This document shows, one piece after another, positions 15,391 to 55,023 of a DNA stretch of 55,316 nucleotides (position 1 is its first letter; every line of letters begins with the position of its first letter). The position numbers and the translations under genes are program-made. The stretch is from a virus (Duplodnaviria > Caudoviricetes). The stretch is taken from positions 1-55,316 of the IMG/VR virus record IMGVR_UViG_3300037575_000020; one strand, written 5' to 3'. The notes beneath the pieces were generated by a model. It did no database searches and was not told where the DNA came from. It saw nothing but the letters and a program-made list of their open reading frames with translations.

Positions 15391-15418
15391 ACATGCGAGG
15401 TAACGCTCAGGAGTCAGC

Positions 15419-16093
15419 ATGGCAGATAAAACTATTTGCGGTGCTAAGACTCGCTCAGGCAAGCCTTGCCAAAACAGACCGATCAACGGCAAGAAACGAT
15501 GCCGTTTGCATGGCGGTCTATCCCCTGGTGCGCCCAAGGGTAATAAGAATAGTCTTAAACATGGCATGTATAGCCGCATCTTTACCGATGAGCAGCTAGA
15601 TGAAGCTCAAGCCATGCAAGGTGATGTCAGTCGCGAGCTTGCGATTGCACGCATACAGTTAGCGAATTGTCTCAAACATCGACATATACAAGGCGATACG
15701 CCACAGCTTGATGAGATCAAAGACGAGACACTGGCTGATGAGGAAGATGAAGAGACAGTCAAGAAGGCACGCGCACGCGATGCCGAGCGCTGCGGTGAAT
15801 ACTACGACCCTGATGAAGATGATTATAGTGGTCAGGAATCTGAGCCACTAAAGCGTACTCGTGTGTATCGCGCTCGTGATTGGGCGAACGAAGAGAACCG
15901 GCTAATCAATTTGATCGCTAAGCTTGAGCTGCAATTAGTCAGACAGCGTATAAGTGTTGTTGAGCTTGAACAGAAACAAAAAGACCTTGAGAAACAGCAG
16001 CGTGATACTTCAGGAGAGAAACGCAACGTAGAAGAGATGACTGACGATGAGCTTGACAACTATCTTATTGACTTGCTCAGCGGAGACTCTTAG
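15419..16093 (+). CDS. terS: Terminase small subunit (HGGxSTG-type)
   Basis: CGAKTRSGKPC...RCRLHGGLS.GAP.GNKNSLKHG motif; directly before terL. Confidence 0.85.
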   Translation: MADKTICGAKTRSGKPCQNRPINGKKRCRLHGGLSPGAPKGNKNSLKHGMYSRIFTDEQLDEAQAMQGDVSRELAIARIQLANCLKHRHIQGDTPQLDEIKDETLADEEDEETVKKARARDAERCGEYYDPDEDDYSGQESEPLKRTRVYRARDWANEENRLINLIAKLELQLVRQRISVVELEQKQKDLEKQQRDTSGEKRNVEEMTDDELDNYLIDLLSGDS

Positions 16094-29414: not shown

Positions 29415-31346
29415 TTATTTTCGATCGAAAATATTACTTTCGATTAAATCCTTTAACTTTAAACTGCCATCGACTGATAAATGATCGTCATCAAAGTAGT
29501 ACGAGACAATCTCATTACCTACGGGGCAGTTTAATCTACCGCACATCGTCGAAGTTGGGTCTACAACGGTTATATTTTTATACTTCTTAGCTTCTTCGAT
29601 AATCATGGCATTTGTAGTTGCCTGAAAATCATTATTTTGCTTAAGAGGTATTGATTTATTGCTGATTTCCCCGCTTGTTAAACGATCATTAATCAATGAG
29701 TTATAAAAAATTTGGTCGGGTGTCGTTTTTTGCAAAGGTACTTGTAGTATTACAATTACTTTTGTATCTGTTTTTGCGTACTCTGCAAACGTATCCTGCA
29801 AACCTTTTTTGAAGGCTTCTAATGATGTTTCTTGATTACTTGGATGGTCTGCATTGCTGCGGATATACTGCATGTCACCGCCGTCATAATCTCCAGCTGT
29901 ATAGTATGTCCAGCGCGACGCTAACACAAGATAATCCACATTGTTGTTTTTAATATAGTCTACAACTTTGTCATTTAGCGCGTGACAGTCTTTATCGACT
30001 TGGTCTTGTCGATCAGGATATACATTTAAAAAGGGGACACATCCGCTATAGCCTGTGTATGTAAACTCTAGGTCATTATCTTTTGCAATACTTTCAATTG
30101 CTGGCAAACTAGAATATGAATGACTATCACCATAGGCAAAAATTTTCTTACTACCACTGGATATTGTACAAAACTCACTATCTTTTTGATGTTGTCCAGG
30201 TTTATCAAAGCATTCGTAATCACCTCTTTTCATGCTTTGTAGTACGCTATTTGGTACTAAACCAAGTTTATAAGGATACTGATTTGCAAGTGCCAATCCG
30301 GTTGCCGAAACTACAACTGTGGCGGCAAATATTTTTTTGTAGTTTAAATAGTTATAACTAGAGATAAACTTACTACGCTCAATATATTTATAGCTTAAAA
30401 ATCCTAGCAATATAGATAAGGCTAAACCGAGATAGACATAAATTTCGGGCAGCTCAAAGTAATATATTGCGACAACTAATGGCCAATGCCAAAGATATAT
30501 AGAGTAAGACCAGGAGCCAAGCTTTTGGAATACAATATTACCCGTGATAATGCTTTCATTACGTTGAGCTTGAATAATTAAAAATGAACCTAGAACTGGG
30601 AATATAGCCAAATAGCCCGGCCACAAGTTTTCTGCTGAGATTAATGCATAAGAACCAATAATTAGTGCGATCCCTAACCATTCAGCTGCTTTCTTTCTAG
30701 TGTCTGACATTGTCAAAGGATAAAGATAAGCAACGCCACCCATGGTCATCTCCCACGCGCGAGTTGGGAATAGGTAATATGAAGCACTTGGGTATTGGTA
30801 CGTAGCCCAAGCTGAAAACAAAAACCCAAAGACTGTAGCAAGGACTACAGCCACTTTCAGGGCATTGAGAGACATAAATTTTCGCAGCACAATCAGTACC
30901 AGCGGGTATATGATATAAAATTGCCACTCGACTGATAGTGACCACGTATGCAGAAGCCATTTTTTATGAGAGTCCGCGTCAAAATAACCGGACTCCATAA
31001 AATACACGAAGTTTGATAAAAAACTAACGCTACTAATAGAGTGTTTACCTAGAATCTTGTAATCTGAGGGAGTGAGATAATACCAGCCCCATATGAGCAA
31101 AACGAAGCAAAGCAATGCTAAAGCTGGAATGATCCGATTAGCACGAGCTATATAGAATTTTATAATAGAAAAGTTATCTTGCTCGATACCTCGGAAGATT
31201 ATACCTGTCATCAAAAAACCTGAGATGACAAAAAACACATCGACGCCCGCAAAGCCACCAGGCGACAATGCAGCGTTAAAATGAAATAGTACGACGGCAA
31301 TGACGGCGAAAGCCCTAAGGCCGTTGATATCTTTTCTAAATTTCAT
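29415..31346 (-). CDS. Acyltransferase-3/SGNH fusion O-acetyltransferase (OafA-like), lysogenic conversion moron
   Basis: FRKDINGLRA.AV..VV.FH, GGFAGVDVFFVISG, HTWSLSVEWQFY, multiple TM segments; SGNH motifs GDSH and DDDHLS; opposite strand and AT-rich. Confidence 0.93.
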   Translation of the reverse strand: MKFRKDINGLRAFAVIAVVLFHFNAALSPGGFAGVDVFFVISGFLMTGIIFRGIEQDNFSIIKFYIARANRIIPALALLCFVLLIWGWYYLTPSDYKILGKHSISSVSFLSNFVYFMESGYFDADSHKKWLLHTWSLSVEWQFYIIYPLVLIVLRKFMSLNALKVAVVLATVFGFLFSAWATYQYPSASYYLFPTRAWEMTMGGVAYLYPLTMSDTRKKAAEWLGIALIIGSYALISAENLWPGYLAIFPVLGSFLIIQAQRNESIITGNIVFQKLGSWSYSIYLWHWPLVVAIYYFELPEIYVYLGLALSILLGFLSYKYIERSKFISSYNYLNYKKIFAATVVVSATGLALANQYPYKLGLVPNSVLQSMKRGDYECFDKPGQHQKDSEFCTISSGSKKIFAYGDSHSYSSLPAIESIAKDNDLEFTYTGYSGCVPFLNVYPDRQDQVDKDCHALNDKVVDYIKNNNVDYLVLASRWTYYTAGDYDGGDMQYIRSNADHPSNQETSLEAFKKGLQDTFAEYAKTDTKVIVILQVPLQKTTPDQIFYNSLINDRLTSGEISNKSIPLKQNNDFQATTNAMIIEEAKKYKNITVVDPTSTMCGRLNCPVGNEIVSYYFDDDHLSVDGSLKLKDLIESNIFDRK

Positions 31347-38773: not shown

Positions 38774-41700
38774 ATGAGCTTAAACGATAAATTATTCAGC
38801 ATTGCTAGTTCAGCCGTTGAGAAGCAGCGCAAAACTCGTGATAGCCGCAGTGCGGTATCAAAAGGTTTTGATGTGGCCACCAATAAAAGCTACTCGAATG
38901 AAGATAAGAAAGTGGCAGCCAAAGCCTTGCGCGAGTGGGAAAATAAAACTTGGAAGCCAAAGGTTGAGGCCAAACTCAAGCAAGAGCTAAAAGCGCGTGC
39001 GCCTCACTTAAAGCCGGGCAGCCCAAAATACAATCAGACTTATGAAAGCCTATTCAATAAAAACTATAAAGACCTGCAGGCCGCCAAAGCGGAAGCACAA
39101 CAAAAAATTGGTACGCTACGCAAGCCTAAGCAAACGCAGCGCGAGCTTGATAATGAGTACCGCACCAATGAGTCTATCCGTAATGACACCGTAGGTGTTC
39201 AAGCCGCCTCACATGCAGCGCGTGACACAGTGTCAGCCGTAGGCGGTGCGCTTGCTACTGGCACATCACGCTTACTACGTGCGCCATTACAGCTTGCCGC
39301 TGACGTGGGCGACAATGACGACGGTGGTATCTTTGACCGTGGCGCAAAAGCGCTAGAGAGCTATGAAGATGATATATCTAATAACGTCTATCAGGCGTAT
39401 GGCGATATTCAGCAGAACGGCAACTTCTCACAAAAGCTTGCTGTATCAGCCGTTGAGCAGGTGCCAGCGCTTGCTGCTAGTTTTGGGGCAGCAGGTGTAG
39501 CTGCTAAAGGTGTTCAGGCCGTAGGCGCAGGCGCCAAAGCAACGGCAGCCGCTTCTTATGGTGTGGCTGGCGCGTCTATGTACCCACAAGCTTATCTTGA
39601 TGGTAGCGATAGCACCAAAGATGAGCTGGAAAATGCAACGTCAGAGCAGCTTGCCAGCGCTGAACGCTCGCAAGATATCTACAAAGGCATGTTTGACAAA
39701 AACGTCAAAGCTGGCATGAGTGAGGATGAGGCGCACGCGAAAGCACGCGATCAGACCATCAGTGAAATTGCTGAAGAGTCAGGCGAGAATGTGGGCCTTG
39801 CGACACTAGCACTTAGCATGATGGCGCCAGGCGTCGGCTCATTCACTGCCAACCGAGCTGCTGGTGGTGCGGTTAGTCAATGGGGCCAAAAGGTATTCAA
39901 TAAGCTTGCCGTCAAAGCAGATGCAAGCAAGGTAGCAGGAGCCGCCATTCCTACAGCTGTTGGCGCTGGCATTGTGGGGTTAAACGTCGCTGAGGAAGGC
40001 TTGCAAGAAGGTTATACCGACTTAGTGGCGCAGCAAGCGGCTGTCGATGTGGGTGTCAAAGAAGAAATAGACAGAGCGCAAAGCACCGAAGCTGTCCTGA
40101 TGGGCGGTATTTTAGGCGGCTTAATGGGCGGTGGCACCTATATCGGTACGCGTAATTCAAAACTACAACAAGCGCAAGACGGACTCAAAGTCGCGCAGCA
40201 AAACTATGCTGATATTGCATCAACCATACCGCAGCTACAAGAGCAAATTACAGCTGTGTCGCCACGCTCAGCAGAAGGTCAGGCGCTAATCACACAGTTA
40301 GAGCAGACCAAATCAGCGCTTAATGCTATGGCAAGTGATGCTGAGAGTCGCGGTATTCCTCGCACGTCGCTGGCACGTCGCGCACCACGTATTGACCCAA
40401 GTAACAGTATCGATCAAGAATTTGACGGTCAAGTCGATGGTGCAACTGAGATTGACGAACAAGGTTTTGATGCTGCATTAAATCCGCAAGGCACGCCAGC
40501 CGCGCCAGTACAACCAGTCGTTGACAGTCAACCTAGCGAGCAAGAGCTTGACGCGCAAGATGCGCAGATCGCTGAGCTTATCGCAGAGCAGCAAGCGCTC
40601 GATGAAGCCATTGACGATGACAGCGCTGGTAAGCCGGTCGAAGAATCTTTAGCAGCCGCGCAAGCATGGTACGACGACAAGCGCGGTGAGAACAAACAAG
40701 GGTTATCAGGCGTCGTGAGCCGAGCAGCTGCTAAGGTTGAAGATGCCGCGTTCGCAGAGCAACAACAAGTGATTGCTGGTACAGGCGCTACTATTAACGA
40801 CTATATAGCGAGTAGGCGCGCTGAGCAGGCGCAGATTGATGCAGAGATCGCACAAGTCGCAGCAGACGCTAAGACGGAGCGCGAACGCCAAGCCGCTGAG
40901 CAATTAAAGCAGAAGCGTGATATAGAGCGTGCAGAAGCAGAAGCCGAGATTGCCAAGCGTGCAGAGCTTGCACAGCCTTATGAGAATGAAGCGTTTGATA
41001 CTACCGTTGTGGGTGCTGATGGTACACCGTTTAACCTAGCAAGGTTCTGGGATAGCAATATGCCAGCCGCTATCAAAGCCAAGGCAATCGCTGATGCGTT
41101 CGGTGGTCAGGTAGAGCAGAATGTCGCAAAGGCAGATTGGGCAAGTTTGCCTGAAGGTGTGCAAAAGCAGTTGCACCAGTGGATGACCGGGCAGCTTGAA
41201 GCGGTACGTCAAAGACGTGAAGCGCAGATTCAGCCGGACCAAGCAGTGCAGGAAGAGCAAAACAAAGCTAGTATCAGTCGTCAGCTTAATGACTCACAGG
41301 TCGCTAGTGGTCTTACTATGCCTGTGCGTGCAGAACAAGCGCCAGCGGCACCAGTAGAGACAGATGCAGCCACACAGTTGACTGATGAAAACCCTACTAT
41401 CAATATTCCGGCACCAGTTTCCGATACATCGTCCGTAGAATTAAATAACAAGCCGTCAGGCAGGCATGCACCTACCAAGACATATGGTCGTGAACCTTGG
41501 GCGTTTATTGGAGAGAATGAGTACGGAATGCCTATCTACCAAAGCCAAAGCGGTGAGCGAATTACCCAAAAGGCAAGTGGTGACTTCTTAGGCGCTGAAA
41601 CAGTTAATCCAGAAACTTACAAGGTCGATCCTAAAGAGCTTGCGAAAGAACACTATACAGTATCCGAAGTTGCTGCAGCTAGAGAGAGATACCAAAAGGT

Positions 41701-44700
41701 TCAGGATCAAAATAAAAAACAAGTAATTAGTGCGCCTCAGCAAGTAGATGCGCTACCTGATGGCGTCTATAAAAGTCAGCCAGCCGCACGCGCTGCTATC
41801 AAGCAGCAAAAACTTAATCCAAAAGAAGCATCTATTGTCAAAGTTGATAATGGGTGGGAGTTAGTAGAATCTACACCAGCCACTAGAGCACAAGCAAGAG
41901 TGGACAGCAAAAACGCAGACAGAAAAGAGCAGGAAGCCGACCAACGATCAGATGACACCGCAATACCTAACAATGATGTCGCTATTGGTAAAGACGGTAA
42001 TGCTAAGTGGTTCGGTAAGCAGGATAAGGCGCAAGCGTTTATTGATAAGAAGGGTATTAGCAATACGCATGAAGTCGTGCAGGCTGGCAAGCGTTTTGAG
42101 ATACAACCGAAGGCGCAAACATCAGGAGCTAGCAAGCAAACCTCGCAACCTACCGATGTATCAATTGAAAACAGAGGTCCTGATACTCAGGAGCTAACCG
42201 CAACAGGCAAGGCTAAGATTACAGGTCAAGCAGGATGGGACGGCAACATTGCCAAGTCTCGTGATTTGGTTCGACAGCTACATGAAGCAGGGTATTTATC
42301 CAAGATTGAAACAGAAAATGCTTTTACAGGAGGTGTTTATACTCTATCGGAAGCTGCTAAGCTGGGATTGAAACGCCAAGATAACCCACCGCCAGTTAAA
42401 AATATTGGTGACAACATTACCGACAAAGGTGGTCGAGAACATAGACTGGTTAGTGTCAATTACAATAAGTCAGGCGGTATAGACAGTGTTAGCACTCAAT
42501 ACTACTCAGAAGCAGACGGCAAATATAAATCCATTCAAGAAAGATCGCTTGGTGATTTTTGGAGAATGTTTGGTGAGCTGGATTTATCTTCTACTGAATC
42601 GGAGCAAGTTAAGGCAACTACCGCCAAGAAGCCTAAACCACTGACTGACGAGCAGTTTGCAGAATTAACCAGCAGTCGCACCACGCCTTCTACACCGACT
42701 GGCGAGCAGTCCGCGCCAGCCAAACGAGCAGCAGCGAAGAAAGGAGTTAAGGAAAACAAGGTATTTGGCGTTGCTCAACAATATTATGAGCCAAAGCAAG
42801 AAAGGCTAACTGTAGAGCCAGGCGATGTTAAGTGGAGAGATAGCTATTCCGATACAAACGCTGTAATAAGACAGCTTGTTAAGAAAGGGTACTTGGAAAA
42901 ATCAGAGTTCGATAATTCCAACAAGGAACATTCGTCGTTAATTGAGTTAGCTATTAAGGGTATCAAGGCGGAGCGCGAAGCTGCTAATATCGCACCTCAA
43001 GCCACTACCGAAAAAACACAAAATGATGTAGCGCCAGAACCCAAAGGACGCTTTGCTGATAACAAGCTATTCACTGAAGATAAGGTAGCAGCGGCACGCG
43101 CTCGCCTAAAATCCAAGCTAACACAGGTCAACTCAGGCCTAGACCCTGAAATACTAATGGACGGCATGACGCTGGCAGGGGCGTACATTGAAAGCGGCGT
43201 TCGTAAGTTTGGTGACTATGCCAAAATGATGATGAGTGATGTAGGGCCAGAGATTAAACCCTACCTACTAACACTGTGGAATGGTGTGCGTGATTACCCT
43301 GGATTAGATAACGAGGGCATGACCAACGAAGTTGATAGTCGTGCTGAGTTTAATAAGTTAATGGCTGAGACTGAGCAGGCAAGCGAACCTACCACGCCAG
43401 CCAAAACCAAACACCCTGAATCCATCGACGTAGGCAACGACAAGCGCCTATTTGTTGGTGAAAACACGGAGGGCGAACCTATCTATGAAGATAAAAACGG
43501 TATAAGATCAAAGCCAGAAGGTAACTTTATGGCAAGCGAGCCAGTAGGTATCAATCTAGGTAGCGAAGGTCCTGCTTATGATGTGAGCCGACGCGCTGAT
43601 AAATTCAAGACAGTGGAAGAGATAAGCGAGAATAACAATGATGACACCGAAGCAGGCACGCAGGATCAAGCAGGAGCGCCGGAAGTACGAGCGCGAGGAA
43701 GTGACCCACAATCAGGAGCTACACCAGCAGATAGTGGAGACGTGGCAACAGAACAGCCCACAAATGACAGCGCGACTGACGAAATTGCAAGTGCTGGACG
43801 ACCTAGCGTTCGTGGTGCAGGAGCGAATGTGGCAGACGAAGGATCAGTACCAAGCCAGCGGAATGCCGAGATCGGACGCGAAGGAACAGGCGACACGCGA
43901 ACATCTAATGCTAGAGCCGGAAAGCGAGCAACAGACAGCGGAACCACTTCACCAGCCGCTACCAAAGCAAGCGCAACCGACCTATTAATTGAAAACCCAC
44001 TAGAGATCGTCGGTGGCACACCAGTACAGCGATTCAATAAAAACCGTGAAGCGCTAGAGCTGCTACAGCGTCTTGAAACAGAAAGTCGCCAAGCCAGCCC
44101 AGCAGAACAAAAGATATTAGCCGGATATATTGGCTGGGGTTCTTTTGGTCAAGAGCTATTTCAAGGTTCATGGGATCATCCTAAATATAAAGACGAGGGC
44201 GTCTGGAAAGATCGCGGTGAATGGTTGCGTGAGACGATGGGCGAGTCTGCCTGGAAGTCAGCACAGCGCTCAATCACCAATGCCCACTATACTGATCCAC
44301 CTACTGTTATGGCGATGTGGGCTATGGTTGAGCGCATAGGCTTTACTGGTGGGCGCGTACTAGAGCCGTCAATGGGTACTGGTAACTTCTTTAGCATGAT
44401 GCCAGCGCAGGTACAATCGCGCAGTCAACTCACTGGTATTGAGCTTGATGAAATGACAGGCTCGATTGCTAAGCAGTTATTCCCACAATCAAACATTCAA
44501 GTCATGGGGTATCAGGAGTCTAAAACGCCTGATAACTTCTATGACGTGGTGATCGGTAACTATCCTTTTGAAAACACACCAGTAGCAGACCGTCGCTACA
44601 ACAAGCTAAACCCAATGCTACACGATTACTTCTTTTTAAAGTCGATGGACCAAGTAAGACCAGGCGGTCTTGTGATTAGTATCACATCGTCCGGCACAAT

Positions 44701-47700
44701 GGATAAGCAGAACGAAGGTATCAGACGCGAACTTGCCAAACAAGCTGACCTAGTGGCTGCTATTCGTTTGCCGTCTGGCGCGTTTAAAGATTATGCTGGT
44801 ACAGCCGTAGTAACCGATATTGTCATCTTGCGCAAGCGTGCCGAGAAAGCCGCTATCGTGCCAGAAGATGCAACATGGGTGGCAGTTAATGATTATGTTA
44901 CCCCATCAGGTGAAACCATCAAGCTGAGCCAATACTATATCGATAACCCTCAAAACATCATTGGTACGATTGATTTTGGCACAGGCACCACTAAATTTGG
45001 TGCAGGCATGATTGTTCGTCGCCCAGACAATATGGAAGAGCGCTTACAACAGGCAATCGACTTGGTGCCTGAGAACGTCATGCAGGCCGACACCACAACC
45101 GACCATCTAACCTACTATGCTAACACAACAGGCGAGCGTCACGGTTCATTGTTCAGCAATGATGCAGGCGAGCTTATGCTTGCTCGCGGTGATCAGATGG
45201 TTAAGGCCCAAGACGTTACCAGTTATGAGGTGAAATCCAAAGCAACGACGCTTGATCGTGAGACTCAGATCAAGGACGCTATTGATTTACGTCAAAAATT
45301 TACCGCACTTGTTGATAAAGAGCGTGCCGGGCAAGAAGCTGAGACAGAACGCAAGGCGTTAAAATCAGCCTACAATGCTTTTGTTAAAAATCACGGCAGT
45401 CTGCGCGACTCTTACGCACTTAAATACATGGATCGCGTCAATGACCCATTCTATTATGACTTAGCAGCACTTGAGCAAGACGACGGCAAGCCAGCTATCA
45501 TTATGAGCAGAAGTACAACACGTGGTAAGGCTGCTATCAAAAACCCAAGTGTGCGTGATGCTTATGTGCTGGCACGTAACAACTCAGTAAACCCCACGTT
45601 AAAAGAGATTGCAGCGCTAACGGATAAGTCTGAGCAAGAAATCCGTAAAGAGCTTAAAGATAGCGGTGCGGTGTTTGAAGGCCCGAACGGTGACATCGTG
45701 CCGTCTGATATTTACTTATCAGGCAACGTGCGCCAAAAACTAAGAGAAGCAGAAGCGGCCCTTAAAGATGGAAATAAGGCGATGAAAGATAACGTCGCTT
45801 CATTAAAAGCCGTTGTGCCTGAAGATGTGCCTTACTTTAATATCGAAACCAAACTAGGTGCAACCTGGATACCGCCAGAAGCCTATCAAGATTATATTGC
45901 TCACATGCTAGGCAAGAGCGACGCGGACAATATAAACGTATCATTTCTATCAGGTCGCTGGAAGGTCAAGCTGGGCAAGGGTATGAACCATGCCGCAGAA
46001 GCGCGCACAAACTACGGCACCCATCATTATCACTTTAGTGCATTGGTTCAGGCCGCCTTTAGTAACCAGGTCGTTCGTATCACAAGAAAGATTGACGGTG
46101 AAGAGGTTTATGACCATGAAGCCACAAGCGAAGCCAATGAGCGTATCGCCAAAATTCGCGGTGACTTTAGCGAGTGGCTGTGGAGTGACCCTGAGCGCCG
46201 AACCGACTTAGAAAAAGAATACAACGAAGCGCGTAATGCTTGGGCCACACCTAAGTATGACGGCAGCTTCTTAACCTTTGAGGGTATGGCGCTATCACTA
46301 GGCAAGGGTGAGTTTAACTTGCGTGAGCACCAAGCCAATGCGATATGGCGTGCTATCGTCAACCGTCGTAGTATTAATGCTCATGAAGTAGGTACTGGTA
46401 AGACGTTTACGATGGGCGGTATCGCTATCGAGTCGCGTCGATATGGTATCGCTAAAAAGCCGATTATCTTTGCTCATAACGCCAACAGCGCAGCGGTAGC
46501 GGAAGAAATCCGCATGATGTACCCATCAGCACGTGTGCTATATGTGAACAACCTTGAGCCTAAATTCCGTGATATTCGTTTGCGTCAAATTGCCAACGAT
46601 GATTGGGATGTTATCGTGATGCCGCACTCTCTTCTTGATCGCATGACATTAACCGAAGATACCTTAATGGCTATGGCGGCTGATGATATTGCCGCACTTG
46701 AGCAAGAGTTTAGAGAAGCTGCTGAAGAAGATGGCGAGAATGTCAGTAAAATCAATCTCGATGATGACGAGTCTATTGGCAAGATTCGCTCTACCACTGC
46801 AAAAGAGTTGGCCAAGTCTCGCAAACGTATCATTGAAACCATCAAAAAGCAGGCCCAGCAATCAAGCAAGGCGAACGCAGTTACTTTTGAGGACTTAGGC
46901 ATCGACATGATCTTAGTCGATGAGGTGCATGAGTTTAAGAAGCCGCCTATTGTGACGCGCATGAAGATGAAAGGCTTGAATACAAGCACGTCGCAACGCT
47001 CTATTCAGATGCAATTTTTAACGCGATATGTTCGTCAGATGAACAATGGCGGTAACGTGCACACCTTTACTGGTACACCTATCACCAATACCATTACTGA
47101 GATTTACCATCAGATGCGCTATGTGATGGAAACGGAAATGAATGAAGCCGCTGTGTCAGATTGGGATGGTTGGTTTGGCTCGTTTGCTACTGAGACACAG
47201 GACGTTGAGTTGTCGAGTGCTGGTGATTATGAAATGGTCACACGCTTAGCAGGCTTTGTGAACGTGCCTGAGTTGCGTCAGATGATCGGTCAGTACATGG
47301 ACACCGTGTTTGCAGAAGATATGCCTGAAATGCAGCCACGTAAAACAGAGTCCGGCAAGACAATGGGTGATGATCTTACCGATCTTGAACGCGCTCATCT
47401 ATTAAATGGCAGAACCGAAGGCGCAAAAGACAGACCGTACAAAAAGGTTATTAACGAGTCTGCAGACATGACCGCAGAACAGAAGCGGATATTTGCACAG
47501 GTGCAAGAGTACGCGGCAGAATGGCGCGACGCTGACGGTAAGACTCGCAGAAAATGGATGAAAGATGGAGATCATCGCTCACCATTAATCTATGGCCGCT
47601 TGGCTGATACCGCTAGTTTTGACGCCCGATTGCTAGACCCTGATTTGGTTGGTAAAGAAGGGCAAGTGCCTGATGACGAGAACAGCAAAACCAGTCGCGT

Positions 47701-50700
47701 GATCAAAAATGTTAGAGATATTTATGACAGTCACGAATTGGCTAGTCAGGTTATCTTTATGGATCAAGGGTACGGAACCAAAGCAAAACGCAGTGGTGGC
47801 CGTAACGCACAAGGCGAGAAAAACCCAGACATCACCGTTGATATATTCTCACCAGTGCTGGATTTGGTGGAACGATTGGTTCAGTCTGGCATACCGCGAG
47901 AGCAGATAGCAGTGGTCAGCGGTAAAACCAAGAAGGAGGAGCGCAGTAGAATTGCAGCCGCCATGAACACCGGTGAGATTCGCGTTGTGATTGGTAGCAC
48001 GCAAACGCTAGGCGTCGGTGTGAACATGCAGCGCAACTTGCGCGCCATGCACCACATGGACGCCCCTTATATGCCTGGTGAGTTAGAGCAGCGTAACGGA
48101 CGTGGCCAGCGACAGGGGAACCAATGGAATACGGTTTTAGAATACCGCTATATGACTGACCGCTTGGACGGTAAGCGCTGGCAGATACTCGCGGTCAAGC
48201 AGCGCTTTATCACCGCCTTTATGAAAGCGAAAGGTAACGCTCGTACAATCGAGGGTGATGCAGTAGAGGAAGAAAGCGATATTTTAGAGTCGTTCTCAGA
48301 AGCCGCTGGTGATCCGCGTATTTTGCAGCGCGTCAAACTACAGAAAAAGCAGGACCAACTAAACAGTAAAGAGCGCTTATACACTCGCGGCATTGCTGAC
48401 ATGCGTAGAGAAATCCGCACGCAAACAGAGCTTGCAGTTAATAACCAGGCAGCACTCGATGCAATCAATCCTCAAGCGGTTGAAGATGCACTTGCCAGCC
48501 AGCGCGACAACTTTAATGTAACTATTGATGGTAAAACCTACGATAAGCGCGCTGATGCTACAGCAGCACTAGATGAATACATTAAGAAAAATGTCAGACT
48601 TGGTGACCCATTAACCAAGGTTGGGAGTTATGCTGGCACGCCTATGTCAATAGTGTTTAAGCATGGCGCACCTAATCCTGAGTTGGTGCTAACAATGGGC
48701 GGCCAGACATTTAGCGGCAAGGGCATTACTGGCTTAGAGTCAGTCATGCGCAATCTACCTAAGCAAATAGAGAAGAAGCAGGCAAGTATTGAAAAATCAA
48801 AAGCCACGGTTGAGCATTTAAAGAAAGCCGTTACACAGCCATTTACCCAGAAGGCAGAGCTTGAGCGTGTTGGTAAGCAGATCAAAGCGCTTGAAGCTGA
48901 TTTAGATTTAAACCCAATTCCAGCGCCAGTATGGTTGCGTCAAGGTGCGCCAATGGATTCTGAGGTTTTCTACGGCAAACAGCCTTTTGTGGTAACTGGT
49001 CATCAATACAGCAAGGACGGTTACTTTGTTGTCGCAGAGGACGATAAAGGCTCAACCACCATTCCTTATCTTGAAGCAAAAGACAGTGTAGGTATGCCGT
49101 TGTACGACGAGCAAGAGTTTATTGCACCTGAGATTGTCACAAAAAAGGATGCTGATAGCCTTACCGAAGAAGATCGCGTACCTGGTACTGAAGAGCCTAA
49201 GTTTTCTAAAACCAATCCAGCCAAAGGATTAACTGGCACTACCAGCCAGCAAGTTATTGGTTTGCTGCAAAATCGTTTTGGTAAAGAGGCAGTCGCCCAG
49301 CTTATCAAGGCTGGCAAGCTACGAGTGCGCACGCTCAATGATTTTGTTGGTAGCAATGGTCGATTACTCATCCCAAACGACGCAGAAGGCTTTTACCATC
49401 AAGGCAAAGTTGTGTTGATTGCTGATAATCTTAAATCTGATACAGCTGTAGCGACACTACTTCATGAGCTTGGCGGTCATGCTGGTATTCAATCGATGCT
49501 TTCAACCCAAACTTACATGGGGCTTATGGAAAACTTCTATGATTTAGTGAAGTCTGGTAACAAGTATGCAGTAAGAGCCAAGCAGCGTGCAGAGGCAAGC
49601 ACCTACAGCGCTAGTGAAGCACGCGATGAATATATCCCATATCTAATTACTGAATATTCGCAAGCGACTGAGCGTGGCGGTCCGCTTGCTGTTATCAAGC
49701 GTTTTGTGAATCGCGTCATGGCTGGCGTGCGCGCATGGGTTCGAGACAATACAGGCGTTCAGTTAAAAATAACGCCTAATGATATAACGCAACTTGCTGA
49801 GCGTATGGTTAAGCGTCTGGCAGAGCAGAGCATGGATAGTGTGACTATTGCTGGCATGGATAATACCGCAGCAATGCCGCAGTACAGTCAGGAATCCACC
49901 AATCAAACAACCACGGCAGCGTTTAAAAAATGGTTTGGTGATAGCAAGGTGGTGGACAGTAATGGCAAGCCGTTAGTTGTTTATCACGGTACAATCAAAT
50001 CATTCAACGAGTTTAATACGACTGATTTTGGTGCGCTGTTGGGTAGAGGGGGTTACTTCACCTCGAATGAGTTAGAAGCGAACAGTTATTCAGGTGGCGG
50101 TACTCGTATCGTGCCAGCTTATCTATCAATAGAAAACCCTTACTATGTTGATTCAGGCTTGGCATCGGTTCCAAGTCGTCAGCAGATGCTAAAAGATGGT
50201 CATGACGGGGTTATCTATAGAGATACGGATGGTAGCGTAAAGTGGGCAGTCGCTCATAAGCCAACGCAGATTAAGTCGGCCACCAACAATATTGGTACGT
50301 TTGATCCATCAAATCCTGATATTCGCTTTAGCCGTCGCTATTCAAACTTAGGTACAGACACAAGCCCAACCACAGCGAAAGAAAAAGCGATTGATGCTGC
50401 TAAGCAGTCAGCAGCTACCGCACTGTCATCTAAGTTTAACTTGAGCTTGTTGCTACGTCGTCATCTAGCCACACCGCTACACGTCGGTATGCTAAACCCA
50501 AGCTTTAAAACCTTCTTTGAAAACGTGCAGTCGCGTATTGCTTACGAGAACAACGAAGCCGGGCGCATACAAGAGTATCTACCTGAGATTTGGGATACCA
50601 AGCTGATGGTAGGCAAGCGCAAAAAAGCAATCGATAAAGTCAGTCGTGCTTTGTTTGATGGCACAATGGCAGATCAGGTGTGGACCGATCCCGAGCTTGA

Positions 50701-53086
50701 GGCAAAATTCAATCTTGATGACAAGCAAAAAGATATGTACCGACGCGCTCGCGCTGCTATTGATTCGTCTGTACTTCACATGACAGTTGATACGCTATCA
50801 TCATTAGCTAAGGGCACCAAGCTGGTTAACATTCATACCATCAATAGATTGAAGCTGGCAGGACTAACCCCTATCGGTCATAACCTGATGATTCAGCAGC
50901 ACATGACGGACGAGCTCAAGAAGTTGGCTCAGTCTGGCAGTATCACGCCAGCCGCAGAGAAGCGTTTGCAAAATCAGTTAGACGGCGTGTTTGACGTGAT
51001 GGATAGTATCGCGGTCAAGTATGACGATCTTGTTGAAAAAGGCTATGCGCCGTTGATGCGATTTGGACACTATGCCGTTGAGGTTCGTGATAAATCCAAC
51101 AATGAGCTGGACTTGTTTGAGCTCTACGAAACCAAAGGCCAACAGCGCAAAGCTATTAAAGAGCTTAAAGAAAAATATGATGAGAATGATTTTGAAGTTG
51201 GCACTGGTACGCTCAATCCTGATGCGTTTAAGCAATTCACAGGCAAAGGTTTATCCCCTGAGACAGTGCAGTTGTTTGCCGCTGAGCTTGGCCTTGATGA
51301 TGACGGTGCCTATCAAGCGTACCTCAAAGTAGCAATCAGCAATCAAAGCGCGCTTAAACGTCTGATTCACCGTAAAAAGGTGCCGGGGTATAGCGAGGAC
51401 TTGCCGCGAGTCTTATCGTCATTCGTCATGAGTAACGCACGCTACAGTGGTCGTGCTCTGTATAATGGCGAGATCGAGAACGCCATACAAAAGATTGAGG
51501 ACGGTAACTTACAAGGTGAAGCGCAGAACGTCTTTGCTAACATGGAAAACCCACAAGAGGAGTTTGCAGGCGTGCGCGGTTTACTCTTCCATTACTATAT
51601 GGGATTTTCTACCGCATTTATGGTGCTTAACTTTACCCAGCCATTTACTCAGACCATACCTAAGCTGACCGCTTATGTTGGCGCAGCGCGTGCGCATAGA
51701 GACATGACACAGGCGCTAGGCATTATCACCAAGTACTCAGGCAAAGCGACATTTGAGTTCGGTAAAAAGGTCACAGGTAATGCTACACCTAGCTGGAAAG
51801 GTTTTGAGGACCACTTGCCAGCATGGGTGAAAAAAGAGGACTACTTACGCATGACTCGTGAGGGTCATCTTGATCCGCAAAATATCTGGATGATTCGAGG
51901 GCTTGAGCGCGGTAAGGCTGGCGTGATTAGCGGTCTATGGGGTAACTTATCGCGTGCCGCTGGTTGGGCCGCTGAGGTGTCAGAGACAATCAACCGTCGT
52001 GGCACTATGATTGCTGCCTTTAAAGTTGCGCAGACGATGGGTGATGCTAAGTTGAAAGCGGAAGGCTTTAACAGTCGCTATGACTTTGCAGTATCGATCA
52101 TTCAACAGACGCAAGGGGTTTATAATAAGGGCAATCGTTCAGGGCTGGCGCGTGGTACTGGTAAGCTTGGACAGTTTGGGCCATTGGTCATGGTGTTTAA
52201 GCAGTTCAGTATTAATTATGCTGAGCAGATGATTCGTCACGGGCGCGATAAAGAGGTTAAATCAATCGCAGTCGCTATGACGTGGCAGTTCTTATTGGCT
52301 GGCGCGTTAGGCTTGCCATTCACTGATGACTTGCGTGATATTGTAGAGGGCTTGCTATACCGCCTATTTGGTCGTGCAACCAACTTGACCGCATTCCTTC
52401 AGGACGAGCTTGGCAAAGATAATGCCGATGCCCTTATGTACGGCTTACTCAGTGAGAAAACACGCTTTGATATGTATGGTCGCTCAAACATGGGTAACTT
52501 TATCCCTGGTACTGACTTTGCTAGACCAAAAGAGGGCGATTGGGCGGAAGTCATTGGAGCATCAAGCGGATTCTTTGAAAACTTCTTTACCGCAGGCGAT
52601 ATGATCACCAAAGGCCAGTATAAAGATGCAGCAGTGATAGCAGCACCGCGTTATGTTCGAGATGCGGCAGCAGGTATTGAGATTTGGAACAATGGCGCTT
52701 ACCGCAACCAAAAAGGCGATAAGGTGATGGATATGGACCGCACTGATGCTGTCATCAAAGGTGCGTTACAGTTCAACCCAGCGTCCAATGCTAAACAAGG
52801 CCGTGAACGTAGCGAGAAGTACCACATGAAAAACATGGTGCTTGACAAGCAAAATCAGTTTGCTCTACAGTTGACAGAGGCGCTATATCAAGAGGACTAC
52901 GATAGAGTTGACGAGCTTTATAATGACATGGACGCCTGGAACGAACGCAATCCCGAACACTTTAATGTAGATATTGATAAGATTGAAGATTCGGCAGAGC
53001 GTCGTTTGGATAAGAAGGACTTTACCAGCGAGGATCGTCAGAAACTACCGGAGCAGTTAGATGACTATTTCACCGAAAGAGAATAA
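38774..53086 (+). CDS. darB: Giant DarB-like polyvalent virion protein (N6-methyltransferase, SNF2 helicase, metallopeptidase-like, ART-like and PLxRFG regions)
   Basis: EPSMGTG (44363), NYPF (44558), HEVGTGKT (46382), DEVH (46919), QRNGRGQRQG, HELGGH (49463), FKKWFG..YHGT..QIKS (from 49922), PLMRFG (51050). Confidence 0.9.
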   Translation: MSLNDKLFSIASSAVEKQRKTRDSRSAVSKGFDVATNKSYSNEDKKVAAKALREWENKTWKPKVEAKLKQELKARAPHLKPGSPKYNQTYESLFNKNYKDLQAAKAEAQQKIGTLRKPKQTQRELDNEYRTNESIRNDTVGVQAASHAARDTVSAVGGALATGTSRLLRAPLQLAADVGDNDDGGIFDRGAKALESYEDDISNNVYQAYGDIQQNGNFSQKLAVSAVEQVPALAASFGAAGVAAKGVQAVGAGAKATAAASYGVAGASMYPQAYLDGSDSTKDELENATSEQLASAERSQDIYKGMFDKNVKAGMSEDEAHAKARDQTISEIAEESGENVGLATLALSMMAPGVGSFTANRAAGGAVSQWGQKVFNKLAVKADASKVAGAAIPTAVGAGIVGLNVAEEGLQEGYTDLVAQQAAVDVGVKEEIDRAQSTEAVLMGGILGGLMGGGTYIGTRNSKLQQAQDGLKVAQQNYADIASTIPQLQEQITAVSPRSAEGQALITQLEQTKSALNAMASDAESRGIPRTSLARRAPRIDPSNSIDQEFDGQVDGATEIDEQGFDAALNPQGTPAAPVQPVVDSQPSEQELDAQDAQIAELIAEQQALDEAIDDDSAGKPVEESLAAAQAWYDDKRGENKQGLSGVVSRAAAKVEDAAFAEQQQVIAGTGATINDYIASRRAEQAQIDAEIAQVAADAKTERERQAAEQLKQKRDIERAEAEAEIAKRAELAQPYENEAFDTTVVGADGTPFNLARFWDSNMPAAIKAKAIADAFGGQVEQNVAKADWASLPEGVQKQLHQWMTGQLEAVRQRREAQIQPDQAVQEEQNKASISRQLNDSQVASGLTMPVRAEQAPAAPVETDAATQLTDENPTINIPAPVSDTSSVELNNKPSGRHAPTKTYGREPWAFIGENEYGMPIYQSQSGERITQKASGDFLGAETVNPETYKVDPKELAKEHYTVSEVAAARERYQKVQDQNKKQVISAPQQVDALPDGVYKSQPAARAAIKQQKLNPKEASIVKVDNGWELVESTPATRAQARVDSKNADRKEQEADQRSDDTAIPNNDVAIGKDGNAKWFGKQDKAQAFIDKKGISNTHEVVQAGKRFEIQPKAQTSGASKQTSQPTDVSIENRGPDTQELTATGKAKITGQAGWDGNIAKSRDLVRQLHEAGYLSKIETENAFTGGVYTLSEAAKLGLKRQDNPPPVKNIGDNITDKGGREHRLVSVNYNKSGGIDSVSTQYYSEADGKYKSIQERSLGDFWRMFGELDLSSTESEQVKATTAKKPKPLTDEQFAELTSSRTTPSTPTGEQSAPAKRAAAKKGVKENKVFGVAQQYYEPKQERLTVEPGDVKWRDSYSDTNAVIRQLVKKGYLEKSEFDNSNKEHSSLIELAIKGIKAEREAANIAPQATTEKTQNDVAPEPKGRFADNKLFTEDKVAAARARLKSKLTQVNSGLDPEILMDGMTLAGAYIESGVRKFGDYAKMMMSDVGPEIKPYLLTLWNGVRDYPGLDNEGMTNEVDSRAEFNKLMAETEQASEPTTPAKTKHPESIDVGNDKRLFVGENTEGEPIYEDKNGIRSKPEGNFMASEPVGINLGSEGPAYDVSRRADKFKTVEEISENNNDDTEAGTQDQAGAPEVRARGSDPQSGATPADSGDVATEQPTNDSATDEIASAGRPSVRGAGANVADEGSVPSQRNAEIGREGTGDTRTSNARAGKRATDSGTTSPAATKASATDLLIENPLEIVGGTPVQRFNKNREALELLQRLETESRQASPAEQKILAGYIGWGSFGQELFQGSWDHPKYKDEGVWKDRGEWLRETMGESAWKSAQRSITNAHYTDPPTVMAMWAMVERIGFTGGRVLEPSMGTGNFFSMMPAQVQSRSQLTGIELDEMTGSIAKQLFPQSNIQVMGYQESKTPDNFYDVVIGNYPFENTPVADRRYNKLNPMLHDYFFLKSMDQVRPGGLVISITSSGTMDKQNEGIRRELAKQADLVAAIRLPSGAFKDYAGTAVVTDIVILRKRAEKAAIVPEDATWVAVNDYVTPSGETIKLSQYYIDNPQNIIGTIDFGTGTTKFGAGMIVRRPDNMEERLQQAIDLVPENVMQADTTTDHLTYYANTTGERHGSLFSNDAGELMLARGDQMVKAQDVTSYEVKSKATTLDRETQIKDAIDLRQKFTALVDKERAGQEAETERKALKSAYNAFVKNHGSLRDSYALKYMDRVNDPFYYDLAALEQDDGKPAIIMSRSTTRGKAAIKNPSVRDAYVLARNNSVNPTLKEIAALTDKSEQEIRKELKDSGAVFEGPNGDIVPSDIYLSGNVRQKLREAEAALKDGNKAMKDNVASLKAVVPEDVPYFNIETKLGATWIPPEAYQDYIAHMLGKSDADNINVSFLSGRWKVKLGKGMNHAAEARTNYGTHHYHFSALVQAAFSNQVVRITRKIDGEEVYDHEATSEANERIAKIRGDFSEWLWSDPERRTDLEKEYNEARNAWATPKYDGSFLTFEGMALSLGKGEFNLREHQANAIWRAIVNRRSINAHEVGTGKTFTMGGIAIESRRYGIAKKPIIFAHNANSAAVAEEIRMMYPSARVLYVNNLEPKFRDIRLRQIANDDWDVIVMPHSLLDRMTLTEDTLMAMAADDIAALEQEFREAAEEDGENVSKINLDDDESIGKIRSTTAKELAKSRKRIIETIKKQAQQSSKANAVTFEDLGIDMILVDEVHEFKKPPIVTRMKMKGLNTSTSQRSIQMQFLTRYVRQMNNGGNVHTFTGTPITNTITEIYHQMRYVMETEMNEAAVSDWDGWFGSFATETQDVELSSAGDYEMVTRLAGFVNVPELRQMIGQYMDTVFAEDMPEMQPRKTESGKTMGDDLTDLERAHLLNGRTEGAKDRPYKKVINESADMTAEQKRIFAQVQEYAAEWRDADGKTRRKWMKDGDHRSPLIYGRLADTASFDARLLDPDLVGKEGQVPDDENSKTSRVIKNVRDIYDSHELASQVIFMDQGYGTKAKRSGGRNAQGEKNPDITVDIFSPVLDLVERLVQSGIPREQIAVVSGKTKKEERSRIAAAMNTGEIRVVIGSTQTLGVGVNMQRNLRAMHHMDAPYMPGELEQRNGRGQRQGNQWNTVLEYRYMTDRLDGKRWQILAVKQRFITAFMKAKGNARTIEGDAVEEESDILESFSEAAGDPRILQRVKLQKKQDQLNSKERLYTRGIADMRREIRTQTELAVNNQAALDAINPQAVEDALASQRDNFNVTIDGKTYDKRADATAALDEYIKKNVRLGDPLTKVGSYAGTPMSIVFKHGAPNPELVLTMGGQTFSGKGITGLESVMRNLPKQIEKKQASIEKSKATVEHLKKAVTQPFTQKAELERVGKQIKALEADLDLNPIPAPVWLRQGAPMDSEVFYGKQPFVVTGHQYSKDGYFVVAEDDKGSTTIPYLEAKDSVGMPLYDEQEFIAPEIVTKKDADSLTEEDRVPGTEEPKFSKTNPAKGLTGTTSQQVIGLLQNRFGKEAVAQLIKAGKLRVRTLNDFVGSNGRLLIPNDAEGFYHQGKVVLIADNLKSDTAVATLLHELGGHAGIQSMLSTQTYMGLMENFYDLVKSGNKYAVRAKQRAEASTYSASEARDEYIPYLITEYSQATERGGPLAVIKRFVNRVMAGVRAWVRDNTGVQLKITPNDITQLAERMVKRLAEQSMDSVTIAGMDNTAAMPQYSQESTNQTTTAAFKKWFGDSKVVDSNGKPLVVYHGTIKSFNEFNTTDFGALLGRGGYFTSNELEANSYSGGGTRIVPAYLSIENPYYVDSGLASVPSRQQMLKDGHDGVIYRDTDGSVKWAVAHKPTQIKSATNNIGTFDPSNPDIRFSRRYSNLGTDTSPTTAKEKAIDAAKQSAATALSSKFNLSLLLRRHLATPLHVGMLNPSFKTFFENVQSRIAYENNEAGRIQEYLPEIWDTKLMVGKRKKAIDKVSRALFDGTMADQVWTDPELEAKFNLDDKQKDMYRRARAAIDSSVLHMTVDTLSSLAKGTKLVNIHTINRLKLAGLTPIGHNLMIQQHMTDELKKLAQSGSITPAAEKRLQNQLDGVFDVMDSIAVKYDDLVEKGYAPLMRFGHYAVEVRDKSNNELDLFELYETKGQQRKAIKELKEKYDENDFEVGTGTLNPDAFKQFTGKGLSPETVQLFAAELGLDDDGAYQAYLKVAISNQSALKRLIHRKKVPGYSEDLPRVLSSFVMSNARYSGRALYNGEIENAIQKIEDGNLQGEAQNVFANMENPQEEFAGVRGLLFHYYMGFSTAFMVLNFTQPFTQTIPKLTAYVGAARAHRDMTQALGIITKYSGKATFEFGKKVTGNATPSWKGFEDHLPAWVKKEDYLRMTREGHLDPQNIWMIRGLERGKAGVISGLWGNLSRAAGWAAEVSETINRRGTMIAAFKVAQTMGDAKLKAEGFNSRYDFAVSIIQQTQGVYNKGNRSGLARGTGKLGQFGPLVMVFKQFSINYAEQMIRHGRDKEVKSIAVAMTWQFLLAGALGLPFTDDLRDIVEGLLYRLFGRATNLTAFLQDELGKDNADALMYGLLSEKTRFDMYGRSNMGNFIPGTDFARPKEGDWAEVIGASSGFFENFFTAGDMITKGQYKDAAVIAAPRYVRDAAAGIEIWNNGAYRNQKGDKVMDMDRTDAVIKGALQFNPASNAKQGRERSEKYHMKNMVLDKQNQFALQLTEALYQEDYDRVDELYNDMDAWNERNPEHFNVDIDKIEDSAERRLDKKDFTSEDRQKLPEQLDDYFTERE
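43638..43988 (+). CDS. Candidate overprinted gene in the +1 frame of darB (116 aa, helical)
   Basis: Protein-like amphipathic helical sequence spanning a disordered DarB linker and ending where the methyltransferase region begins. Confidence 0.6.
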   Translation: MMTPKQARRIKQERRKYEREEVTHNQELHQQIVETWQQNSPQMTARLTKLQVLDDLAFVVQERMWQTKDQYQASGMPRSDAKEQATREHLMLEPESEQQTAEPLHQPLPKQAQPTY

Positions 53087-53817: not shown

Positions 53818-55023
53818 TTATCTAGCCTTTAATTCATCAAGATAGTCAGCATACGCTTGCATCATATCGCGTCTCTCTTCCAAAAATACCGTTCTATTAT
53901 AGGCGCGCCCATGCATATCGCGCACTCTATGGCCTAGTTGCATTTCTACCAGATTTTCAGGGTATTTTAGCTTTTCAACAATTAAAGTCCTGGCAGTCGC
54001 TCGAAAACCGTGTATAGTTTGCTTAGTCCCATCATAACCCAGGCGCTTTAGTGCCTGATTCATGGTGTTTTCACTCATTGGCTGAACGGTGGTGTGTATA
54101 GCAGGGAATAAATATTTACTACGTGCGTGATCTGATAACTCACGTATTAGCGCTATCGCCTGTCTTGGCAGTGGCACAATCAACTCTAAACCAGTCCTAC
54201 GCTGCGTTTTACGAGGCGTAAAGGACCAAGTACCCTCGTCTAAACAAAAGTCATTCCAGAGGGCATAACGTAGCTCGCCAGCCCTCACAAACAGCATAGG
54301 CATAAGCTTGATAGCCGTCCTTACTTCAAACGATCCTTGATAGTCATCAATCGCATTTAGTAATATACCGAGCTCTTTTGGGTCAAGCGTGGTTGGGTGG
54401 TGCTCGGTCACTGGTGTTTGCAATGCGCCTATTAAATCTTGCGTAATGTCACGCTCGCACCTTGCTGTTTGCACCGCATACCTAAATACCTGTCCAGCCA
54501 TTGTTCGCATTTTTATTGCCGTCTCCAGATACCCTTGCGCTTCAGCACTGCGGCACGCTTCTAGTATATCCATCGGCTTAATATCAGTCATAGGCGTATC
54601 ACCGATAAATTTATTCAATCGCTTGATTTGCCTGTAGTTATTGGCTTGCGTGGATTTTGCTATATGTGTTTTACGGCTCATGTACTCTTCGGCTATCGCT
54701 GCAAATGTGTTATTGGCTTGTAGTAATTGCTCGCGCTCATCCTCTAGTTTTTGTTGTTGTGGGTCAATACCTTCTGCCAATAGCGCACGAATACCTTTGC
54801 GCTGATCGCGTGCCTGAGCGAGCGTAATATCAGGATAAAGCCCCAACGTAATAGTCGCGTGCTTCTTAGTTATTGGTCTAACATAGTTCATTCGCCAGGA
54901 TTTAGCGCCTAGCTTTGTCACATATAAATACATGCCGCCACCGTCAGCAAGTTTATATGCCTTGTCTGCAGGCTTGGCTTGCTTAACCTGGCTATCGGTT
55001 AATGGTTTAATTATTTTAGCCAT
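53818..55023 (-). CDS. int: Tyrosine integrase, P4-like
   Basis: N-terminal arm-binding domain (DGGGMYL.V...G.KSW, LG.YP..TLA.AR); catalytic R (VRAGEL), HGFR, LGH and AYNR. Confidence 0.96.
   Translation of the reverse strand: MAKIIKPLTDSQVKQAKPADKAYKLADGGGMYLYVTKLGAKSWRMNYVRPITKKHATITLGLYPDITLAQARDQRKGIRALLAEGIDPQQQKLEDEREQLLQANNTFAAIAEEYMSRKTHIAKSTQANNYRQIKRLNKFIGDTPMTDIKPMDILEACRSAEAQGYLETAIKMRTMAGQVFRYAVQTARCERDITQDLIGALQTPVTEHHPTTLDPKELGILLNAIDDYQGSFEVRTAIKLMPMLFVRAGELRYALWNDFCLDEGTWSFTPRKTQRRTGLELIVPLPRQAIALIRELSDHARSKYLFPAIHTTVQPMSENTMNQALKRLGYDGTKQTIHGFRATARTLIVEKLKYPENLVEMQLGHRVRDMHGRAYNRTVFLEERRDMMQAYADYLDELKAR

Follow-up and report, generated by a model that had tools for sequence, protein, structure and literature searches.

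Small genes placed wholly inside larger phage genes, on the same strand but in another frame, are known from several systems. The spanin gene Rz1 lies in the +1 frame relative to Rz and has its own translation start, and its product is a lipoprotein that acts with Rz in lysis. In phiX174 (B in A, E in D) and MS2 (L), dual coding leaves one frame conserved and the other tolerant. For phage JC1, the "embedded" class has been described (PMC9144972). The present analysis concerns a stretch of 55,316 nucleotides (hereafter the window; positions 1 to 55,316 of the IMG/VR virus record IMGVR_UViG_3300037575_000020, Duplodnaviria; Caudoviricetes), and within it an open reading frame (ORF) of 116 codons plus stop, termed X, at 43638–43988 on the plus strand. 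X is located in the +1 frame of a giant gene for a polyvalent DarB-like virion protein. Comparison with related loci indicates, with a probability of about 0.82, that X is a true coding gene nested inside the giant one. Its mechanism class, the embedded out-of-frame phage gene, would thus be a known one.

X shares with the described embedded genes an open frame conserved in phase, purifying selection stronger than that on the host frame, and a start codon with a ribosome-binding signal. It differs from Rz1 in that its predicted product looks soluble and helical, with no signal-peptide features by eye, and in that it occupies an inter-domain linker of a gene for a 4770-amino-acid (aa) virion protein. 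The overlaps of the small phages belong to tiny genomes in which size is under pressure, whereas the genome concerned here is of ∼55–60 kb; moreover, it is the larger gene that supplies the tolerant frame here, and the embedded one seems to predate it. The lambda G/GT pair also yields two products from one stretch of virion-module gene, by frameshifting. X differs from it in having a conserved start and Shine-Dalgarno (SD) signal and no slippery site that could be found. The host gene resembles darB of phage P1, with which it shares an LPD36-like GxGU feature, an adenine-methyltransferase motif and an SF2 helicase. P1 darB is without X: neither X profile gave a match in the P1 region. By the same profiles Ulx, a small neighbor of darB, is unrelated to X. 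Ulx reportedly helps the packaging of DarB in P1.

The X frame, found at the coordinates given in a first-pass annotation made by a model from the letters of the window, runs from a double ATG (ATG-ATG) to a TAA stop. The giant frame reads the same bases (43637–43984, plus strand; residues 1622–1737 by translation) as a low-complexity linker, of which 91% is G/A/S/T/D/R/P/E/Q/N and 7% hydrophobic, against 24% hydrophobic residues in X. This composition, together with the poor conservation of the linker, bears out the earlier description of the DarB frame as disordered. The predicted position of X between a mini-domain and the methyltransferase module was also found to be correct: the mini-domain (KRLFVGEN...EPV; "A2" of the first-pass annotation) lies at 43442–43546 in the giant frame, and the module begins at 43979 with the DLLIENPLEIVGG...GWGS motif, the first codons of which are overlapped by the X stop.

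The length of X was rejected as evidence for the gene. With the giant protein held fixed and its synonymous codons redrawn in 2000 trials, the +1 frame at the site was still open for 120 codons or more in 47% of the trials under gene-wide codon usage and in 21% under local shuffling. Because the redraw reproduces the ORF, the single-sequence argument and the "helical look" of the product carry no evidential weight, and the case is a comparative one.

Selection was compared between the two frames in 20 non-redundant embedded loci of the window's own clade (X1), after removal of three duplicates (L004, L027 and L028), the free-standing gene of locus L023, four in-frame forms and one frameshifted form. 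Over the same 93 columns, the mean amino acid identity was 0.495 for X and 0.339 for the giant frame. The X identity was the higher one in 189 of 190 pairs, and 13 columns were invariant in X against 2 in the giant frame. Nucleotide diversity at X codon positions 1, 2, and 3 was 0.406, 0.350, and 0.468, respectively, the least variable site being X position 2, i.e., the third position of the giant frame. Substitutions were also counted in four close pairs that are phylogenetically independent of one another; those sparing the X protein but changing the giant one were more frequent than the reverse kind in every pair (16:3, 20:7, 34:0, and 26:9). The sum of 96:19, set against a mutational opportunity of 3585:4501, gave P = 5e-18. 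The corresponding ratio was 24:142 in the 150 codons downstream, at the methyltransferase N-terminus (Fisher 2e-32), and 128:174, near the neutral expectation, in a poorly aligning region 110–260 codons upstream. The purifying selection in the +1 frame that the first-pass annotation had put forward as a check was thus observed.

Two other clades behaved in the same manner. The identity in clade X2 (PEp14, Itty13, SopranoGao, Atu_ph08, POI1126, VvAW1, and Mwe-JY07) was 0.545 for X and 0.373 for the giant frame (X higher in 21/21 pairs), and in clade X4 0.554 and 0.323 (10/10 pairs), with diversities of 0.324, 0.294, and 0.535 at the three X codon positions. The window and its nearest relative, L002, are 95.8% identical over 43363–49894. 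They differ at 2 of 348 nucleotides (nt) within X, where each change leaves the X protein intact and alters the giant one, and at 45 of 1275 nt in the flanks, where most changes are silent for the giant frame. The low divergence of this pair is not general, as overall divergence in X was not below that of the methyltransferase in the other close pairs.

A tBLASTn search with X, also suggested in the first-pass annotation, was run on 50,697 phage records and found only the Pseudomonas phages USP_18 and USP_25 (58.9% identity, E 1e-33), where the homologues sit in the +1 frame of the giant ORF. A protein database held 16 stand-alone calls of X, of 97–174 aa and 44–68% identity, with common invariant positions (W, P, A.V.QERMW, G, D, E.A, and LMLEPE). 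The X profile retrieved 211 clusters at E ≤ 1e-3 from 1.84 billion representatives; among the 150 clusters listed, the majority are of ∼100–135 aa, with a match that in the majority of cases starts no later than residue 20. A set of loci selected through X itself comprised 29 members, namely, 17 viral and 11 genomic loci (all 28 from an alignment scan of contig collections) and L001. In 23 of them, with GC contents of 0.42–0.67, X is covered by an ORF of >3,800 codons and occupies its +1 frame; the six exceptions are four in-frame forms from Psychrobacter, the free-standing L023, and a metagenome-assembled genome with a frameshift.

A sample independent of X was obtained by searching viral contigs with an alignment of the A' domain, which precedes the linker in the giant frame; 261 relatives were found and the best 80 were kept. 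The giant frame was open to the locus end in 80/80. Profiles of X1, X2, and X3 matched 43 of these loci (9, 11, and 23, respectively). Every one of the 43 matches is in the +1 frame, and frames 0 and +2 gave no match to these profiles. Frequent +1 stops in homologous linkers, named in the first-pass annotation as the mark of a spurious frame, were not seen, no stop lying inside X. The X2 members are PEp14, Pavtok, Stean, SopranoGao, LASTA, SJM3, Itty13, Atu_ph08, POI1126, VvAW1, PBC5, and Mwe-JY07. Among the eight X2 phages examined for frame, seven carry X embedded in +1 and one (PBC5) in-frame. X1 and X2 cross-match weakly by hidden Markov model and at 85% (E 5.9e-6) by hhalign, and are probably homologous. 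X3, of the Bcep22 group, is conserved, reached only 16% against X2 by hhalign, and is a probable, not a demonstrated, embedded gene under selection. X4 is the type of Pseudomonas phage 8P, with GC contents of 0.40–0.66.

The manner of expression was evaluated in 30 non-redundant embedded loci of X1, X2, and X4. A start codon is present in all 30 (29 ATG, 1 GTG), and the giant-frame codon overlapping it varies (GAT, AAT, CAT, or AGT). An SD-like signal stands at a fixed distance, the prevailing bases being A at −12 (21 loci), G at −11 (23 loci), and G at −10 (27 loci); by a 4-mer criterion, an SD-like sequence is present in 20 of the 25 loci scored, compared with a background of 17% at other positions in the same frame. 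Apart from these positions and the start codon, the per-position information stays below ∼0.8 bit. An X-frame stop is found 1–5 codons 5' of the start in 10/30 loci. In the window this is the TAA at 43623–43625 (plus strand), four codons upstream of the ATG as in L002, and it leaves almost no room for entry into X by frameshifting. It is followed by a weak SD-like GCGAGA (43626–43631, plus strand), whose G residues at −10 and −8 fit the family signal. In-phase X_XXY_YYZ slippery heptamers were present in 0/30 loci, this being the only class of site scanned and +1 sites being less well defined. The in-frame Psychrobacter forms, in which A' and X are joined in one protein, have no start codon at the X start position. 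Taken together, the conserved start and SD signal, the upstream stops, the lack of a heptamer, and these in-frame forms favor internal initiation over frameshifting as the likely route. No promoter-like site was found near X, so the giant transcript presumably serves as its message. Ribosomes would start internally on this late mRNA and make a ∼13-kDa, five-helix, TnpV-like protein, while ribosomes already on the giant gene would read the X bases one position earlier as the disordered G/A/S/T/D/R-rich linker, a segment that would tolerate nearly any change.

Three other explanations were weighed against an embedded gene with its own start. The X frame could be an artefact of composition, the amino acid make-up of the linker rendering it T-poor, stops rare in all frames, and the helical appearance of the +1 translation accidental. 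T indeed makes up 10.5% of the X stretch as against 22.1% of the giant gene, with an AT skew of ∼0.5; one antisense frame runs open over 160 codons, and the redraws cited above reproduce the length of X. Nevertheless, such an artefact leaves unexplained the higher amino acid conservation in the +1 frame, the 96:19 bias with its reversal downstream, the codon-periodic diversity, the conserved start and SD signal, the 211 clusters of the protein, and its free-standing and in-frame homologues. Contradicted already by the data on frame conservation and selection, it is considered very improbable. The codons of X offer another reading of the composition. Only 5 of its 116 codons end in T, compared with 30–32% in the giant gene and six other genes of the same phage, and in all five cases the next codon starts with C or the codon is the last sense one. 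The third positions of X, which are the first positions of the giant frame, are 51% G, i.e., G-rich and T-poor like a first codon position. This make-up is expected where neither frame may close and the linker in the giant one is to remain rich in Gly, Ala, Asp, Thr, and Ser; the stretch would be T-poor because X shuns T-ending codons, which keeps the giant frame free of stops. A constraint on the nucleic acid rather than on a second protein, such as an RNA structure or a DNA site with a regulatory or packaging role, would suit the unusual conservation of the stretch between the window and L002 (2/348 nt against 45/1275 nt). It can hardly be credited, however, since the three-base periodicity fits the X frame (position 3 > 1 > 2) in three clades, other close pairs differ by 13–15% in the stretch, mostly at X-silent sites, and the clades differ widely in sequence with the protein pattern retained.

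The remaining alternative accepts the X protein domain and changes its mode of synthesis: a programmed +1 (or −2) ribosomal slip near 43626–43640 would give a truncated N-terminal product of the giant gene ending in X. Such an arrangement has parallels in the in-frame A'-X proteins of Psychrobacter and PBC5 (gp22) and in phrog_938, a 2185-position profile with the X2 domain at its end, and would agree with the constant frame relation (+1 in 43/43). Under frameshifting, however, there would be no call for a start codon kept in 30/30 loci despite the varying giant codon over it and missing from the in-frame Psychrobacter forms, nor for an SD-like signal at a constant distance from that start. 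The X-frame stops 1–5 codons upstream in 10/30 loci leave no space for a conserved shift site, the in-phase heptamer is absent from all 30, the giant frame has neither a stop nor an obvious pause codon there, and a free-standing X gene exists. Frameshifting is hence judged unlikely, and translation of X from its own internal start is the preferred reading.

Several points weigh against X as an embedded gene. The length of the ORF is not significant within the window, and the case for its translation rests on sequence comparison. The set of 29 loci was found by searching with X, which biases it toward intact frames. In the sample drawn through A', 37/80 loci gave no match to the X1, X2, or X3 profiles; some of these, of low GC, carry other long +1 ORFs, X4 included. 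The selection test was equivocal for X3 (16:14; identity 0.77 against 0.75). The loci are related to one another, and P values from locus counts overstate their independence. The GCGAGA of the window misses the SD 4-mer criterion, and L002, with the same motif, does so as well. The lack of a promoter-like site near X is counted here too, though it fits translation from the giant mRNA and adds nothing. Searches with Foldseek, the PDB, Pfam, PHROGs, and PADLOC gave no functional lead for X.

The first-pass annotation had called X an overprinted gene. A genuine, conserved coding frame was indeed found, but the direction is probably the reverse, X being the older frame and the linker of the giant gene the overprint. 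X is read as the older because it has relatives that stand alone or in-frame and bears a remote likeness to a described family, whereas the linker is less conserved and has no recognizable relatives. In L023, a Pseudomonas contig, X is a free-standing gene of 133 aa that follows an unrelated ORF. In-frame X forms the C-terminus of the 221–390-aa A'-X proteins of Psychrobacter and of PBC5 gp22. PBC5 gp22 (with phrog_938) and the Psychrobacter proteins have the same order, A' and then X, in one frame with X C-terminal; unlike these, the X of the window needs its own start or a change of frame. The family resemblance is to Pfam TnpV (PF14198), a small transposon-encoded protein: the X2 proteins of PEp14 and Itty13 match it over ∼60 residues (E 4e-4 and 0.015, respectively), TnpV and X2 share the pattern W..P..Y..L...G.L, and an Atlas lead at rank 25 points to TnpV as well. 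Membership of TnpV was rejected, as the scores of PEp14 (20.7 bits) and Itty13 (15.7 bits) are both below the 27-bit gathering cut-off. X1 proteins of the window's clade (P0001, P0010, and P0018) gave no match to TnpV even at E ≤ 10. The order of age is inferred from these relatives rather than from a dated tree. The giant gene would have arisen, or would persist, through out-of-frame reading across X. An embedded gene seemingly older than the frame that covers it would then be a natural case of gene fusion by out-of-frame read-through.

The loci with in-frame X have features of their own. In four Psychrobacter loci (L019–L022, ∼7100–16250 in each), the phage-like A'-X gene, a piece of a counter-restriction protein within a host defence island, lies between a type IIG restriction-methyltransferase gene on the opposite strand and a complete type I Zorya operon (4/4); the PADLOC matches in L021 are ZorA1 (E 1.6e-250), ZorB1 (9e-106), ZorC1 (1e-251), and ZorD1 (E 0). 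As the four loci are syntenic, the arrangement is counted as one event. In Sinorhizobium phage PBC5 (L040, 2733–3306), the giant gene is split; gp22 is in the X frame and has the X2 domain at its end, the downstream frame is open from 2733, and both frames are open over ∼570 nt. Either a genuine difference of one base or a mistake in this early sequence may account for the split.

Recombination exchanges the modules of the giant gene, as A' has been swapped between the window and L002 and the nearest relatives of the window's A' stand beside X3. The A' region of the window (42112–43363) is largely unalignable to L002, and the identity of 95.8% holds from 43363 on, a stretch that takes in the mini-domain and X as well as the methyltransferase and helicase parts. 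Closest to the A' domain of the window are those of L044 (90%) and L045 (82%), phages that carry an embedded gene of the X3 type. In eight loci (L008, L010–L012, L017, L018, L024, and L029), a conserved domain of ∼200 aa (..QDWGV.HIDGW...GG.KDAFL...), missing from others among the giant genes, is inserted between A' and X; X is still directly 5' of the methyltransferase module there.

The AlphaFold2 (AF2) model of X, made from an alignment of 17 sequences, has a mean predicted local distance difference test score (pLDDT) of 73.8 and shows five helices and a disordered acidic tail. A Foldseek comparison of the model with the PDB gave no match at E ≤ 0.001. The best match in BFVD was Q8W6J4_2 (E 0.58; TM 0.55 on the query; root-mean-square deviation 1.0 over 66 columns), possibly the protein of PBC5 with X2 at its C-terminal end. 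A PDB sequence profile search with X returned nothing at E ≤ 1, and neither X nor the Psychrobacter A'-X protein matched a family of PADLOC-DB at E ≤ 1e-5. Co-folding of X with A' (alignments A3 and A2; run without controls) gave a score of 0.00 and a mark of 0.32, to which no weight is given.

The first-pass annotation had pictured X as a dedicated partner of the DarB enzyme core. X always lies directly 5' of the LPD36-methyltransferase-helicase module, in the window and L002 it moves with this module while A' is swapped, and in Psychrobacter and PBC5 it is fused to the A' domain. Its position before the module is explicable by physical linkage and does not require a functional tie. Since X adjoins the methyltransferase module here and is fused to A' elsewhere, a factor acting in trans with the neighboring modules of the giant protein, either A' or LPD36-methyltransferase-helicase, can be proposed tentatively, at less than even odds. 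Such a factor could serve in assembly or packaging, or in control of the enzyme in the producing cell; X may also act as a separate anti-defence protein. If X does partner the methyltransferase-helicase or A', it would provide a handle on the assembly or control of very large virion proteins.

A broader and somewhat more doubtful proposal is that the linker before the methyltransferase is a conserved slot that always holds a small +1 gene, the giant gene being a fusion of two large genes by out-of-frame reading across an older, small one and the X product an obligatory trans-acting partner or a co-delivered counter-defence factor. The families exchangeable in this slot would be X1, X2, and X4, which are shown to be embedded genes, X3, which is a probable one, and two more seen by eye. 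If the slot proposal were true, the Psychrobacter A'-X gene beside type I Zorya and type IIG restriction would be a host-captured copy with a role in conflict. As a separate observation, the low-GC contigs L104–L106, L109–L116, and L119–L120 have protein-like +1 ORFs of 126–161 codons, 200–1400 nt past the A' start. At least two recurrent groups were recognized among them by eye (L106/L112/L115/L119–L120 and L109–L111/L113–L114), with no match to the X1, X2, or X3 profiles. The longest +2 ORFs in these loci are of 42–94 codons; +1 ORFs are generally longer than +2 ORFs there, so the length is weak evidence.

The literature search found no description of the X gene. In the covered parts of PMC5512222, the words "overlapping", "frameshift", and "TnpV" are absent; the domain alignments on its file transfer protocol (FTP) site, outside those parts, might hold in-frame X under an LPD name. 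Likewise, the covered part of PMC9144972 is silent on any second frame within the DarB-like gene, the share of which in the JC1 genome it puts at 22.1%. Giant DarB-like genes fill about a fifth of the genome in these podophages. None of the inspected phage records has a second-frame gene annotated, the giant gene being given as one coding sequence (CDS), as two (PBC5), or with CDS only on the other strand (Itty13). X would accordingly be an unannotated protein in many phages, including those of the USP_18/USP_25, PEp14, LASTA, Itty13, and 8P groups and probably of the Bcep22 group. "Silent" engineering of the giant-gene linker would then not be silent, and evolutionary rates taken from this part of the giant gene would be misleading. 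In Pseudomonas phage Itty13 (L033, NC_070969.1), three CDS are annotated opposite a 2758-codon open frame homologous to the giant gene; the antisense strand of this 68% GC genome seems to have been annotated in place of the giant gene.

The window is that of a temperate phage or prophage and encodes a terminase, a portal, a major head protein, an internal virion protein, and an integrase. The giant ORF (38774–53086, plus strand, 4770 aa) closes the virion module, and its homologues in related phages carry the annotation "DarB-like antirestriction". Pfam matches in the giant protein were ART-PolyVal at residues 3728–3843 (E 7.9e-18) and ResIII, SNF2-rel (weak), and Helicase_C over residues 2514–3115; no Pfam methyltransferase family matched it at E ≤ 0.01. 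The A' domain (43052–43378, plus strand; residues 1427–1535), delimited by blastn and alignment A3, is the sole DNA-level match outside the two best phage records (blastn query 43000–46000, positions 50–364). Alignment A3 holds 17 sequences with 14 invariant columns, and a Pfam search of A' gave chance-level matches only. The mini-domain (plus strand) may be repeated, as a similar segment was noticed by eye earlier in the protein, at residues ∼880–920 (..FIGENEYGMPIY...ITQKASGDF..), beside that at 1557–1591 (..FVGENTEGEPIY...IRSKPEGNF..).

The start of the methyltransferase module (43979–44149, plus strand) contains an LPD36-type GxGU feature, GWGS within GWGSFG at 44132–44149, noted here as presence of the motif only. 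It is followed in the giant frame by EPSMGTGNF and GNYPFEN (44363–44575, plus strand), motifs familiar from the gamma-class N6-adenine methyltransferases. GNYPFEN (44555–44575) is an NYPF variant of the NPP(Y/F)-type methyltransferase motif, and the SF2 helicase lies downstream. The placement of an LPD36 GxGU N-terminal to a methyltransferase and the meaning of the methyltransferase motif follow definitions in the covered parts of PMC5512222.

On the minus strand over the X region, an ORF of 123 aa (43666–44037) lies within the 160-codon open stretch. Calculation by hand from the coordinates places its third positions on position 2 of the X codons, the least variable one. It was rejected as a gene, being judged a by-product of the T-poor composition and probably not coding. 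In the metagenome-assembled genome of a Pseudomonadaceae member (L025, ∼8000–8300), the X homologue is split across frames (profile positions 7–79 and 73–102) with no covering giant ORF, and represents a pseudogene or an assembly error. Elsewhere in the window, a 643-aa ORF on the minus strand (29415–31346), inside the virion module, matches an O-antigen acetylase PHROG (E 6.9e-151) and is likely a lysogenic-conversion gene, and the integrase is located at 53818–55023.

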